The notes beneath the pieces were generated by a model that did no database searches, was not told where the DNA came from, and worked only from the letters and a program-made list of their open reading frames with translations. A program made the translations under genes and the position numbers. From Escherichia coli (GTDB lineage Bacteria; Pseudomonadota; Gammaproteobacteria; Enterobacterales; Enterobacteriaceae), in NCBI RefSeq assembly GCF_003334255.1, contig NZ_QOWU01000005.1: a stretch of 64,000 nucleotides of DNA, one strand, 5' to 3'. This document shows, piece after piece, positions 47,790-64,000 of the stretch. Numbering within the stretch: position 1 is the first letter of the stretch; every line of letters starts with the position of its first letter.

Positions 47790-47847
47790 CTCATTGATTC
47801 TTATCTGTGTATCACCGTCATCATTCTCATCTGAGAACCAATCGAAA

Positions 47848-48021
47848 TTAACAACAGCCTTCTTCTGTATGCAGCAAGGCAAAAAGTTCTGTAACTCCAT
47901 TGTTATTAACTGCACTGGTTACTAACACGTTGTGCGCTCCAGCTTCCCGTAACCAACTTTTCACCAAAGATATTTGTTCCATGCTGGCTAAATCTGCTTT
48001 GGTTACTACTCCAATGACCGG
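47848..48021 (-). pseudogene. EutP/PduV-like small GTPase, C-terminal fragment only
   Basis: Translation …VIGVVTKADLASMEQISLVKSWLREAGAHNVLVTSAVNNNGVTELFALLHTEEGCC resembles the EutP/PduV C-terminus; no P-loop N-terminus; the upstream part of ORF 47848..48204 overlaps the IS66 fragment. Confidence 0.35.
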
Positions 48022-48080
48022 GTGATTCATGGCCCGGTAGGGCGTTTTTACCTCTAATTCCTGCTTCAGCGCTGAGATTC

Positions 48081-48230
48081 CTGCTTGTTGCCGGAAAAGC
48101 AGGCACCTGCCGTCTGAACGGTATCGATCCGGAAGCGTATCTGCGCCATATTCTGAGCATACTGCCGGAATGGCCCTCCAACCGTGTTGACGAACTCCTG
48201 CCATGGAACGTAGTTCTCACCAATAAATAA
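48081..48230 (+). mobile_element. IS66-family transposase, 3' terminal fragment
   Basis: Frame translation LLVAGKAGTCRLNGIDPEAYLRHILSILPEWPSNRVDELLPWNVVLTNK-stop matches the conserved IS66 TnpC C-terminus as recalled; no upstream reading frame, so only the last ~50 codons remain. Confidence 0.6.
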
Positions 48231-48644
48231 GCGTCAATACGGTGCTCCGTTGACGCTTACTTTAATCCGTTTTCTGAGCTTAGATTTTTCTGTTCCTACC
48301 CAGACCGTGGATTTGGAATTCATTTTTTGTCAGGTCAATGCTAATCGTTAAAACGGCCATAACGCACCTCCACTGGAAGGTTTATCAGTAATATCCTACC
48401 GTTGCTTCATGGTCGGGGCGTCCATTCCATTATTATCGGTTTTCCTTTCTGTTTATAAATGAAAACGCCAGCTGTATTCAGGCTGGCGTCAGGGGAAATG
48501 AAGCCTGTTGAGTGAGATTCACCGGTTCTGGTGCAGAAGCTGCAGATGGCGCAGGGTAAGGACATCTTCTCTTGCCTGCTTAATACAGGACAACAGTGCT
48601 GTTTCTGTGGTTAATGGCACTATACCCTGCATCACTGCATTGTC

Positions 48645-48839
48645 TTACAGCAACTGGTGAGGGCTGGCATAAGTTGCCGGTGTTTCGGTAGAGTCACGGT
48701 CATCCACCACGCGGAGTGAATAACCGTTTTCAGCGGCCTTATTAATCAGTTCAGTGATATTAACACCATCAATGTCAACGACAATGTGCCCCATATCCAG
48801 CGCCTGTACGTTAACGCTGTCGGCTTCCAGTGTCATCAT
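48645..48839 (-). CDS. yeeW: YeeW-like small protein
   Basis: 64-aa ORF MMTLEADSVNVQALDMGHIVVDIDGVNITELINKAAENGYSLRVVDDRDSTETPATYASPHQLL; start overlaps the in-frame end of the cbtA reading frame. Confidence 0.6.
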   Translation of the reverse strand: MMTLEADSVNVQALDMGHIVVDIDGVNITELINKAAENGYSLRVVDDRDSTETPATYASPHQLL

Positions 48840-60066: not shown

Positions 60067-62447
60067 CTGCTTTTCTCACATTTGCAGATTTTAAAAAAGC
60101 AAACAAAAACCTCCGTACATGATGTACAGAACAATCTACCAGGTAGTGGCGTCAGAAAACCTCCGGGCCGCCTGCACTTTCCGGAATGCGCCGGTTATGA
60201 AAAACCGGAAATTCAGTCTCTGTTGTAAGATGTACCCTCTGATACTACGTTTTCTCTGTGTATTTAACTCACTGTATTTATTGTCTTTTTAAGCTTGACT
60301 GATATTCTCCGGTCATAGTGTGCCGGATATACATCCCGTAAACTTCTCATTTTTATATAAAAATACCTGCACTCTCTTCAGCGCATCTGTCTCCTTTAAG
60401 TAAAAAATGTTTTTACGTATTGCTGTAAATTCATTTTAAATCAGTATATTACCTTGATATTGCTGTCTCCTGGTTTGATGCGTAATCGTTCTGCCTTTCT
60501 GGATGATTCTGGTGCTTCCGGGTGCATTCTCCTCTGCACATGCAACAGTTCGTCATCGCCACGCTCCCAAAAAGCATATAAAAACGAATCGAATTTGATA
60601 TTTTTTTCAATCGTTTTTCATAGGAATTTCGTAGGGTATTCTCCGCTATAACCTCCATATTTGCTGTCTTTTTCTTCATAAATCGTATGCAATGTAGCCT
60701 GTCTGTCAAGACCTCTTCTCTGCTGTTGAGGAGACGATCTCATTTTTGGTCTTTTCCGGGAGAGAGGCTGTCAGATGAGCGAGCCGGATATACTGTCAGA
60801 GGTACACCCCGTAGCAGACCTGTGCTCCCATTTCCGCGATCCGGAACCAACAACACCCTACGGTTAATACCATTTGAAGCGTCAGGTACTGCAGGAAGTT
60901 CCCCCCTGCGCGGACATCGGTTCCTGCCGACATCTCACAATACGGCCAGACTGTCATGCAGTAACACCCGCATGCGGTCTGCGGTTTTAAGCGCACTCTC
61001 CCGTTTTCAGTGCACCGATAATGCGTCATAGTAAGTCTGGGGGAAGTTACGGAATGCCTGTTAAGTGGTGCCGTGGGTGGAGACAGCTTACTTTTCTACA
61101 GCAACTGCAGTCATTCAGGATGATCAGGAGATATTCTGTCAATGTCACGATCCTGCCATTTTCGTACCCGCTAAGATACTTCCGTTACTGATGCTGTCCG
61201 CTTTTCACCATTTCATCCTCACTGACAGGCGTTGCGTTTTGGGTCATCACCACAGCTTTACGTTTCTCTTTTAACCGGTAACGCTCTCCTTTGATATTCA
61301 GCGTGGTTGAGTGATGCAGCAGTCAATCCAGGAGCGCTGTTGTCCGGCAACCACCATATCAACTTCTTCTCGGGTGTGGCGGAGAGGTGGTATCCTGGCT
61401 GAGTTTCGAAGCGAACCGTTCTTTTTGACGGGCGCATTTTACGTCCGGGCTGAATGTAGTAACGCGGCATGGAACGTCGGCCCGTATACCATTGCCTTAA
61501 TCTCCGCAAAGATAACCTCGTCATTCCGGACATTCTCTGCCAGGCATATGTCGATGTAATCCATAAACGATTTCAGCTTACCCCTTTTGTGGCCAGTCTT
61601 TCTGGCTGGCGGTTCAGGGGATGTTTTCTGGTTATCGTGTACCACAAAGCAGGGATATTGCCCCGATAGTCACATTTCAGATTGATCGCGGTCTGAAGAT
61701 GTGGCACTGAGGTAACGTGCTGGTGTCACTGGTATTGCTGAAGTTATGGTTTTTCGGGGTCAGGTGAGCCTGTTGTGTGTATGCTTTTTGTTCAGGTCAG
61801 AGGGGGACTGTGTGGACAGCGGCTTTTGTCTCCGGGCATTCACGCCTGAACGATGAATGCGATTTTCAGCAATATTTGTCTTTGTGACACTCTCTGGTTG
61901 AGAAGCTAATGCGCGCCCCTGTTTCCACAGAGAATGAGGCTTGCCATCAGCCGAAACATCAGTATTCCACGCCATACAGACGGCGCCTGACCATGTGCTG
62001 ATGCAGGTAAAATGTTTCACTACAACTGTTCGGGTTGCTATGCAACGAAACAGCGATTCTCACGATCTTTAACTGCAACGTTTTTCCGCCTGAAAGCTGA
62101 CTGCCTCCTGCTGAGGTGGGAGGCTATGATTCAGTGCGTTTATAGTCTCCGGGGTATGCATGTACCGGAGCATACCATTTCTGGTGGATAACAAGCCGGC
62201 ACATTCAGACTGCAGTGAAGATGGAGGCACCTGGTTGTGAAGAACGTTTCTGCCCGTGGCTGCTTCGCATCATCAATGGTATTCATACCCGCTCAGAAAT
62301 GACCGGGTGCTGAAGCCCTCCGTTATCGCGCAGTATAATGACGTATATGATCTGTGGACGAGTGAGCGGCGTGCCTGATGTACGCCGCTATTACTGTATT
62401 TTACCACAGGGCTGGTTTTCTGCTGCCAGCCCTGTGGTTCTCAGACA

Positions 62448-63065
62448 TCAACTGTGAGCGGCATCAACCGATGTACGGTATGCCATAAGCACGTACTGAT
62501 CCATCAGATTTGTCAGTGGTTCACTCTGACCCTGACGTGCAATGATCCATTGCTCCAGATCTTTTTCTGATTTGTGTTTCAGGTTTTTCGTCCAGTCGTC
62601 AAGGCTGTTTCCGGTCATTAAGTCAAGCCAGCAGAGCCAGACCAGTTTGAGACGTAACTCCGTGCCGCCAAACTGACGGAAGAGGCTGATCAGTTTGTTT
62701 GCCAGAGAATGTTGCTTCAGGCGCTCACATTCAGACAGCAGGATCCCTTCCAGCATCGGATGATGAACCAGCAGGTGTTCGCTGGTGCATAAATTCACCA
62801 CCAGATCATCATCCAGGGACGGGGAGCTCCGTTTGTCCGGACCATAAATCAGCCGGTGCAGACTCTGGGGAACGATGGCAATCTCCGGTTTTTCGCCATT
62901 GAATGACACCCACCCGGGCGTCAGATTATGGAAATAGTAGATATTCGGATGACACACGCCCCATGATACGGCGTGCCGGGTGAAGCCGGTCAGCCATTTC
63001 TGGTAGTTTTCATGGAGCAGCTCGTAACGGGTCTGATACTGTTGTTTCATTTTCATATTCCTCAC
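62448..63065 (-). CDS. hypothetical protein
   Basis: 205-aa ORF downstream of the alpA-like gene; no recognisable motif. Confidence 0.45.
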   Translation of the reverse strand: MRNMKMKQQYQTRYELLHENYQKWLTGFTRHAVSWGVCHPNIYYFHNLTPGWVSFNGEKPEIAIVPQSLHRLIYGPDKRSSPSLDDDLVVNLCTSEHLLVHHPMLEGILLSECERLKQHSLANKLISLFRQFGGTELRLKLVWLCWLDLMTGNSLDDWTKNLKHKSEKDLEQWIIARQGQSEPLTNLMDQYVLMAYRTSVDAAHS

Positions 63066-63143
63066 GGGGGATAACAGGCAGCAGAGCGCCGCCGGCAGGC
63101 CGGAGATTGCGTCTGCTGTGGGCGAAGGGTTAGTGGTTAAAAA

Positions 63144-63350
63144 TTACGGACGGGACTGTGCAATACGCGCCTGCAGCCAGGCTTCCACTTCACTTTTCAG
63201 CCAGCGGGAGCTGCGCCCCATTTTGATGGGCGCAGGAAAGCCCCCATCTTTGATGAGTTTGTCAAACCACTTATCGGTTAGGCCGGTCAGTTGAGTGATA
63301 AACGCCATGTCGACCATCTGGTCATCCATCAGCGAAACTGGGGTAGCCAT
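63144..63350 (-). CDS. alpA: AlpA-family phage transcriptional regulator / excisionase-like HTH protein
   Basis: ORF 63144..63545; likely start MATPVSLMDDQMVDMAFITQLTGLTDKWFDKLIKDGGFPAPIKMGRSSRWLKSEVEAWLQ at 63350; AlpA-type HTH pattern. Confidence 0.7.
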   Translation of the reverse strand: MATPVSLMDDQMVDMAFITQLTGLTDKWFDKLIKDGGFPAPIKMGRSSRWLKSEVEAWLQARIAQSRP

Positions 63351-64000
63351 GAGAATGTTCCTCCGGATGTTGTTAAACCAGCCGGTGTGGTCATGAAAAC
63401 AGCGCGCCACCTTCACCGGCATAACAACCGGGGAGAAACGTAAAAAATAATCGGGAATGTGACCGCCAGGAGATAAACGGGGAGGTTGCGGTGGCTGAGC
63501 CGTACCGGTATACCGGGTGGTTGTTGCGAAAAGATGCTTCCGCACGCACGCGCGATAAAGAGGGGGTAGTTTTCGTGAGGACAGGGAGAGAAGCAGGCGT
63601 TCTGATAATTGCAGAGTTGTTTTCGGAGGTGGTTACAGTGAGTCAGCCCGTTCCTGGCGAGCAGGAGACTGATATCACCGATGGGATAAGGTTGTCTGAT
63701 TGGTATTATAAATATAAGAAGTCATCAGAGAGTAACGTAAAGGATTTGCCAGAATAACCTAAGAGAGTAAATCTCTCCGGTAACAGAGCGCTGTGAAGCA
63801 TTCTGTATCAGAGTGCAAATACATGAACGCTGATGCGTAAAATCAGCAGTGACACGCCAGCTCCCCCTGTGCCCATTCCTGTATAAGACATGAACTGAGC
63901 GTATTAATGCTCCTGCCCTGAGACTGAGCCGGTGAGTGAGGGGCTGAGAAATCCCTCTTGACACTGCTCTAAACCAGAAATACTTCCCCGGTTGTTGCGG

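Follow-up and report, generated by a model that had tools for sequence, protein, structure and literature searches.

The 64,000-nucleotide stretch of Escherichia coli DNA analysed here (NCBI RefSeq assembly GCF_003334255.1, contig NZ_QOWU01000005.1; hereafter referred to as the window) passes, downstream of the conserved core gene tmaR (yeeX), from core DNA into genes of genomic-island type. The question raised by this locus is what element these genes belong to, where it begins and ends, and how it relates to CP4-44, the cryptic prophage annotated at the same place in E. coli K-12. A preliminary description had read them as a CP4-44-like island in which other cargo had taken the place of flu and yeeR. 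Our comparisons indicate that positions 48031-64000 very probably represent the proximal half of a widespread allele, the 'dynamin' allele, of the very island that K-12 annotates as CP4-44. This island would be the remnant of an old CP4/P4-type integrative island that has lost its mobility and lies in the pdu operon slot, with tmaR and cobU on either side. As an allele of a known island, it is well annotated, very common and immobile; the corrections reported here are useful for annotation and unsurprising to a specialist.

Kinship with CP4-44 and the pdu slot

Alignment of the window with MG1655 by blastn revealed 99.6% identity over positions 47001-50476, up to the 5′ end of yeeS, and the proteins of the yee module proved 99-100% identical to their K-12 counterparts. 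Homology to K-12 resumes only at 57944-58499, in the yeeP pseudogene (96.6% identity). The chromosomal slot and the left junction with the pduV remnant (pduV′) are likewise those of CP4-44 (b1994-b2006; NC_000913 2066020-2078748), in agreement with the earlier view that the CP4-44 backbone is present at the CP4-44 locus with different cargo. Neither flu nor yeeR is part of that cargo, as had been proposed: tblastn searches of the 64-kb window with Ag43, Cah, YeeR, IrmA, DUF905, YfjI/H/J and K-12 AlpA returned only DUF957 and DUF5983 fragments, and the annotation of near-identical relatives whose islands are complete (L001, L003 and L006) lists neither gene. The K-12 island, in contrast, carries isrC-flu-yeeR, a yeeP pseudogene and an intact cbtA, where the window has an intact yeeP and a frameshifted cbtA; it is also devoid of the antirestriction gene, the DUF932 gene, the dynamin operon, the two secreted-protein open reading frames (ORFs), hyp383 and alpA, all of which are found in the window. 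Since the antirestriction and DUF932 genes are among those missing from K-12, the swap relative to that strain is larger than 'flu and yeeR'.

Kinship with other CP4 elements, which the preliminary description had also assumed, holds at the protein level: the succession of GTPase, DUF932 protein, antirestriction protein, RadC, DUF987 protein, antitoxin and toxin is shared with CP4-57 and CP4-6 at 49-82% identity. For tRNA-integrated islands such as GI-pheV, 'yee' and 'flu' are established module names (PMC11537424). Unlike the element in the window, CP4-57, CP4-6 and tRNA-integrated islands of the GI-pheV kind retain a tyrosine integrase and a tRNA or tmRNA site, and their cargo differs. Near-identity to K-12 at the same locus, together with the synteny with CP4-57 and CP4-6, thus identifies a CP4-type island that is a same-locus allele of CP4-44.

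The last core gene ahead of the island is tmaR (47418-47747, plus strand; RefSeq annotation of relatives, mapped by blastn). The preliminary description had let the island start at 47800 and had named an EutP-like and an IS66 gene fragment as its bounds on the core side; the second of these is indeed island content, whereas the first belongs to the core. The EutP-like fragment (47848-48030, minus strand; NCBIfam EutP/PduV), which corresponds to the 3′ 183 nt of pduV, lies beside tmaR in 5418 of 5426 complete E. coli genomes, irrespective of what comes after it. The homology of the window to the empty site of the island-free strain TUM9868 stops exactly at 48030 and resumes, in relatives, about 150 bp upstream of cobU. 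In UPEC-774U, the slot is occupied by an intact pdu operon (tmaR, pduV encoding 147 aa, pduU-pduA, pduF, pocR, a cobalamin (B12) riboswitch, cobU), and the nearest full-length relatives of the fragment are PduV proteins from E. albertii (84% identity), Citrobacter (73%) and Salmonella (71%). Its near-universal presence, the end of homology at 48030, the intact pduV beside tmaR and the identity of its nearest relatives all argue that the fragment is the tail of pduV, a core relic, and that the island begins at 48031. The same junction falls at K-12 position 2078748/9, the annotated end of CP4-44, and both island junctions fit the K-12 annotation 2066020-2078748.

The island itself opens with the 3′ fragment of an IS66-family transposase gene (48031-48263, annotated 48093-48230, plus strand), which is yoeD in K-12 and is described in RefSeq as 'transposase domain-containing, missing N-terminus'. 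This insertion sequence (IS) fragment is 96-99% identical to plasmid-borne copies of ISEc23, and its truncated 5′ side faces pduV′. The 118-aa ORF annotated as yoeF in K-12 spans the pduV′/island junction, with a NCBIfam EutP/PduV match limited to residues 58-112, and is thus a chimeric ORF that joins antisense IS66 debris to the pduV tail, the latter making up its C-terminal half. For annotation purposes, yoeF is a marker of the scar at the point where the pdu slot passed to the island. A search of the literature on the pduV/yoeF/cobU remnant returned nothing relevant. An inverted copy of the terminal part of the IS66 fragment (48102-48263), 91% identical, was noticed about 26 kb deeper in the island of relatives (L003 33015-33176).

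The right junction, which lies outside the window, is present beside a cbi remnant and cobU in three relatives (L001, L003 and L013); in relatives, an IS4 fragment adjoins the cbi remnant, and IS fragments are found at both ends of the island. Inspection of the two junctions by eye revealed no direct repeats. The 5′-truncated IS66 gene facing pduV′, the stump of yeeW and the DUF957 gene cut down to its C-terminal 30 codons suggest that an IS-associated deletion removed the original island terminus together with pdu genes. The tmaR-cobU locus exists in three allelic states, namely the intact pdu operon, an empty scar and the island. In the scar of TUM9868, tmaR is followed by a longer EutP/PduV fragment, a short ORF and cobU, and 280 bp of it (L005 9284-9563), consisting of more of pduV and of sequence upstream of cobU, have no counterpart in island-bearing strains. 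As the scar retains these 280 bp, the island state is not a simple insertion into the present-day scar. Br_178_kylling, considered as a candidate for an intact pdu operon, was rejected upon finding an IS1-associated deletion.

Distal half of the island and mobility genes

The window ends inside the island, and the preliminary description had placed an integrase and a tRNA attachment site past position 64000. A complete CP4-type integrative island with both features just beyond the window end has some appeal, in that an AlpA-like regulator lies near this end, AlpA sits beside the integrase in CP4-57, and CP4-57 and CP4-6 both possess integrases, at ssrA and thrW, respectively; what follows alpA in relatives of the window nevertheless makes such an arrangement highly improbable. 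Several genomes of the collection are about 99.6% identical to the window over 47001-64000, ISHS7 matching this interval in one piece and GDSC2239PM and others carrying an IS100 inserted at 61586-61590. In GDSC2239PM, ISHS7 and SMS-3-5, the island runs on for a further 12-17 kb before core DNA (cobU) is reached. This distal part comprises an Hha fragment, an inovirus-Gp2-family gene and zinc-ribbon genes; copies of ISL3, IS110, IS3 and IS30 along with IS66 and IS4 fragments; a decayed cluster made up of a ggt fragment, a phosphotriesterase, a DMT transporter, an amidotransferase and a PfkB kinase; in some strains, a fragment of the TonB-receptor gene yoeA; and finally the cbi remnant and cobU. 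Throughout the alpA-cobU interval of four complete relatives of this allele or locus, only IS fragments, Gp2, zinc-ribbon and decayed metabolic genes are seen, and neither an integrase nor a tRNA. Searches by tblastn with IntA and IntF detected no tyrosine integrase in the window or in L001, L003, L006 and L007 (the latter from KTa008), and none is annotated there. ARAGORN detected no tRNA anywhere in the 64 kb of the window. The closest tRNA gene, asnV, lies outside the island, past the core genes cobUST and ldtA, and K-12 CP4-44 likewise has neither integrase nor tRNA.

Of the hallmarks of mobile CP4/P4 islands of tRNA sites, the element therefore displays an AlpA-type regulator and the order GTPase, DUF932, antirestriction, RadC, DUF987, type IV toxin-antitoxin pair, and is devoid of an integrase and of integration at a tRNA or tmRNA 3′ end with direct repeats, its junction lying inside pduV′. 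An island with no integrase, attachment site or tRNA site would be inherited vertically and would change only through recombination and IS activity.

Alleles of the slot between yeeP and the DUF932 gene

The sharp breaks in homology to K-12, at the 5′ end of yeeS and at the stop codon of yeeP, could be taken to mean that flu-yeeR gave way in situ to the dynamin operon and the secreted-protein genes in a K-12-like ancestor, K-12 thus being ancestral. Such a replacement is very unlikely in view of the other alleles found at the same locus. In KTa008 (NZ_CP091651), the locus reads alpA, hyp200, YfjI, yeeP, agn43, yeeR (838 aa), irmA, DUF905, DUF932, antirestriction gene, yeeS and so forth to tmaR. 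This full-length flu allele has the framework of the window (alpA, hyp200, yeeP, slot, DUF932, ard, yeeS, yeeT, cbeA, cbtA, yeeW, IS66′, pduV′) but fills the slot with agn43, yeeR, irmA and DUF905 where the window has dynamin, rdcB, patatin and two ORFs, and it has YfjI at the place of hyp383 and of the AAA gene debris of the window. It shares 98.3% identity with the window over 44649-52051, 96.8% in yeeP and 90.4% from hyp200 to alpA, with no homology between these segments and with breaks at 52051 and 57944. K-12, on the other hand, has a yeeR that is truncated and fused to yeeS, has lost the antirestriction and DUF932 genes as well as the region from yoeA to yeeP, and retains yeeP as a pseudogene only. 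The existence at the same locus of a full-length flu allele with the genes that K-12 is missing shows that the K-12 form descends by deletion from a KTa008-like allele. O157:H7 is an analogous but independent case, derived by deletion from the dynamin allele: in Balcarce_24.2 (L013 11862-15145), a full-length yoeA, encoding a TonB-dependent receptor, directly adjoins a 5′-truncated dynamin gene.

Equally at odds with replacement, autotransporter and dynamin genes coexist elsewhere. The island at the serX tRNA gene of the enterohaemorrhagic E. coli-like strain 07_3986 contains yeeP, cah, dynamin, rdcB, patatin and DUF932 in this order, so that the dynamin-RdcB-patatin operon of the window recurs there, in the corresponding slot. 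Relative to it, the window misses only a 3.15-kb cah block and has an additional 1.2-kb block (52052-53278) with the two signal-peptide ORFs; the serX island, for its part, has cah, a tRNA-Ser boundary and neither of these ORFs. The joint presence of cah and the dynamin operon indicates that the autotransporter and dynamin modules are independent of each other and are not alternatives. The earlier statement that the cargo differs from that of K-12 was thus correct, whereas the notion that it replaced flu and yeeR is not supported.

Sliding comparison with the serX island revealed 99.6-100% identity over 53250-56000 (2.75 kb; L004 18001-20700), a tract in which patatin and rdcB are joined by the last third, on the 3′ side, of the dynamin gene, followed by an abrupt fall to 75-95% over 56000-57730, which covers the 5′ two-thirds of the same gene; the backbone of the two islands is 78-98% identical. 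Identity zones with such sharp limits point to recent gene conversion between paralogous islands, with a recombination breakpoint inside the dynamin gene. The yeeP-DUF932 slot would thus swap modules with paralogous islands borne at tRNA genes.

The frequency of each allele was determined in 5426 genomes with locus-anchored queries consisting of tmaR, the yee module and an allele-specific segment, a genome being counted at a coverage of at least 80%. At the tmaR-cobU locus, the window type was found in 2246 genomes (41%), the full flu type in 692 (13%), the K-12 deletion type in 361 (7%) and the empty scar in 202 (3.7%), while the left junction of the window, irrespective of the allele, was present in 4151 (76.5%). 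The cargo block at 52100-57940 was covered to at least 80% in 1842 genomes and the whole 17-kb stretch in 1731. The window form, six times commoner than the K-12 type, occurs in SMS-3-5 and, as a deletion derivative, in O157:H7; it is the commonest allele, and K-12, which the preliminary description had used as the reference state, is the minority exception. The CP4-44 of K-12 is in other words atypical, a deleted version of an island that in its commonest allele has a dynamin-phospholipase operon.

According to the reading that we favour, the backbone of this island would be made up of a 'yee' establishment module (DUF932, antirestriction, RadC-JAB, DUF987, CbeA, a dead CbtA and a truncated YeeW), the YeeP GTPase and the AlpA-like regulator. 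The yeeP-DUF932 slot would accept independent modules, among which an Ag43/Cah autotransporter, the dynamin, RdcB-like and patatin genes, and either two small secreted proteins or IrmA with DUF905; in the window, it would hold the dynamin module and the two secreted-protein genes without an autotransporter. Differences between alleles would arise from homologous recombination or gene conversion with paralogous islands at tRNA sites, and IS-associated deletions would yield further variants, K-12 and O157:H7 independently of each other. Several points weigh against this reading. The window stops inside the island, and the absence of an integrase and attachment site is seen in relatives, 99.6% identical over 17 kb, rather than in the source strain. 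No genome of the collection is identical to the window, and the 25 best matches all have an IS100 that the window is without. The allele counts rest on the 80% coverage threshold and not on genome-by-genome inspection; the function of the cargo is one that we infer, PADLOC assigning it to no known defence system; and the island may have been inserted either before or after the loss of pdu.

Cargo, backbone and neighbouring DNA

All genes of the island from the DUF957 fragment to the alpA-like gene are on the minus strand, as established from the ORF listing, the RefSeq annotation of near-identical genomes and family searches, and every gene listed in the preliminary description was recovered in the order given. 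The cargo operon begins with a dynamin-like GTPase gene (55333-57729), whose product is a paralogue of RdcA/CrfC/YjdA with 33% identity over the full length and an intact P-loop (GTMKAGKST). It is followed by a gene for an RdcB-family protein (54431-55336; 30% identical to K-12 RdcB/YjcZ) and by one for a patatin-like phospholipase (53364-54434), in which the GxSxG (GASIG) and DGG motifs are kept. Against the NCBIfam model for CrfC (NF007368), the GTPase scored 556 bits, so far below the cut-off of 1146 that it is to be regarded as a paralogue and not as RdcA/CrfC itself.

In a 2026 transcriptome study of strain MP1, homologous dynamin, RdcB and phospholipase operons were described on two islands, with about 30% identity to the core RdcAB; they were strongly induced in Kapi1 lysogens and a role in phage defence was proposed (PMC12922286). 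A homologous operon has thus already been noted in the literature, and its function is the only point that keeps some novelty. Most probably, the operon gives rise to a GTPase complex associated with the membrane, which would control a phospholipase or act as its partner and may serve in membrane stress or in defence against phage infection. Our tentative proposal, which we hold to be possible without being probable, is that the dynamin, RdcB-like and patatin genes, perhaps together with the two secreted proteins, constitute an uncharacterised system that acts at the membrane against phages or through abortive infection. As a cassette, it would move and recombine in the slot between yeeP and DUF932 of CP4-type islands, and in about 40% of E. 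coli it would have become fixed within an immobile island that replaces the pdu operon.

The full-length homology of the first two products to RdcA and RdcB, the same protein lengths and gene order as in the core pair RdcA (YjdA/CrfC)-RdcB (YjcZ), the overlapping stop and start codons, and the known activation of DgcE by RdcA and RdcB (PMC6510439) might alternatively designate the operon as a second signalling pair of this type, which would regulate a diguanylate cyclase and thereby biofilm formation rather than serve in defence or membrane damage. We consider this unlikely, given that the GTPase misses the equivalog cut-off by a wide margin, that the third gene, the patatin, has no counterpart at the core rdcAB locus, and that the operon resides in the cargo slots of mobile islands and is reportedly induced by lysogeny (PMC12922286). 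Eleos/'Dynamins' (LeoA/LeoBC) and DynA of B. subtilis are, like the product of the first gene, dynamin-family GTPases linked to phage protection. Compared to the Eleos/Dynamins systems, however, the island operon has no LeoA and different partner genes. PADLOC run on the cargo and hypothetical proteins identified no defence system and returned marginal partial matches only, to LeoBC (8.6e-5, over some 60 residues around the P-loop) and to a phospholipase effector (1e-4); the RdcB-like protein and both small ORFs matched no PADLOC profile. The DefensePredictor paper makes no mention of this kind of dynamin or patatin system. A promoter scan over the cargo yielded sites that were no more numerous than in shuffled sequence.

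Downstream of the patatin gene, the 227-aa ORF (52545-53228) encodes a signal peptide and, farther inside its translation, another stretch that looks like one, and has no match in Pfam, NCBIfam, PHROG or PADLOC. In the longer version of this ORF (227/263 aa; 52545-53336), the hydrophobic stretches resembling signal peptides fall at residues 37-57 and about 93-116 in the numbering of that version. The presence of two such stretches in one ORF suggests either that two small secreted-protein genes have fused or that the start has been called wrongly. The other ORF (52119-52529; 136 aa) has a Sec-type signal peptide in its translation (MKTFIKTLLVAVTILFSVFATA/KQ) and a match to phrog_8968 (2.6e-45), with no significant match in Pfam. 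Downstream of both, on the same strand, lies a terminator-like hairpin with a 13-bp stem and a T run (51948-51977), within the segment common to other alleles, homology to which extends up to 52051.

Beyond this hairpin come the genes of the yee backbone. The DUF932 protein (51077-51898; phrog_12094, 4e-133) is a homologue of YfjQ and YafZ, with 75% identity to both, and the antirestriction protein (50516-50995; phrog_10132 anti-restriction, 1e-64) is 67-69% identical to LfgA/YfjX of CP4-57 and YafX of CP4-6. The gene yeeS (50024-50500), in whose 5′ end the homology to K-12 breaks at 50476, codes for a RadC-like JAB protein (NCBIfam RadC, 1.6e-43), and yeeT (DUF987; 49740-49961; phrog_14887) for a product 100% identical to K-12 YeeT. 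The antitoxin gene cbeA (49298-49666) is intact and its product 99.2% identical to K-12 CbeA, whereas the toxin gene cbtA (48836-49209) is a pseudogene, three-frame translation revealing a frameshift after residue 73. Of the type IV CbtA/CbeA pair, the antitoxin is thus left as an orphan. An identical frameshift is recorded in the annotation of the dynamin-allele genomes L001, L003, L006 and L013, which include SMS-3-5 and O157:H7, while cbtA is intact in the flu-type alleles of KTa008 and K-12. The truncated DUF5983 gene yeeW (48645-48839) has a product 100% identical to K-12 YeeW, of 64 aa compared to 163 aa in the paralogue, with a match confined to the N-terminal part of the latter. Closest to the IS66 fragment is the C-terminal remnant of a DUF957 gene (48519-48611), which tblastn aligned, with 80% identity, to the DUF957 protein of the serX island over residues 36-65.

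On the other side of the cargo, the intact gene of the YeeP-like GTPase, a pseudogene in K-12, was assigned from the annotation of relatives and a family search (57947-58819). It is followed towards the window end by hyp383, encoding a hypothetical protein of 383 aa with no family match (58903-60054), by gene debris (61185-61617) consisting of the C-terminal part of an AAA ATPase gene (61185-61322) and the fragment of a hypothetical gene with a frameshift, both mapped from the RefSeq annotation of L001 and L003, by hyp200 (62448-63050; 200 aa, 90% identical to that of the flu-type allele), and by the alpA-like gene for a helix-turn-helix, excisionase-type regulator (63144-63350; Pfam Phage_AlpA, 1.8e-5; PHROG excisionase families). 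Pfam searches with hyp383 and hyp200 produced nothing significant, and Rfam (E ≤ 0.1) had no match over 44-64 kb, hence no isrC-like small RNA. The debris includes an unoccupied IS100 target site, TTTGT (61586-61590), which is occupied in each of the 25 best-matching genomes by an IS100 of 1.95 kb with a 5-bp duplication at its flanks. A 601-bp query across the empty site was covered to at least 80% in a single place in 409 genomes, some of these matches possibly lying in other islands. Between hyp383 and the AAA fragment, about 1.1 kb (60067-61185) contain short ORFs only and no annotated gene, in the window as in its relatives.

Judging from ORF layout and composition, positions 1-47000 of the window appear to hold the wca (colanic acid) genes, galF, gnd, ugd, wzzB, the his operon and yeeZ-yeeA, with an O-antigen cluster of 30% GC content at approximately 14.4-24.1 kb. 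A 334-aa ORF on the minus strand (27052-28056) lies between ugd and wzzB. In KTa008 (L007 26000-31400), an ISEcp1-blaCTX-M-14 unit was observed together with IS903B and lamB fragments inside dacD, a few kb from the island.

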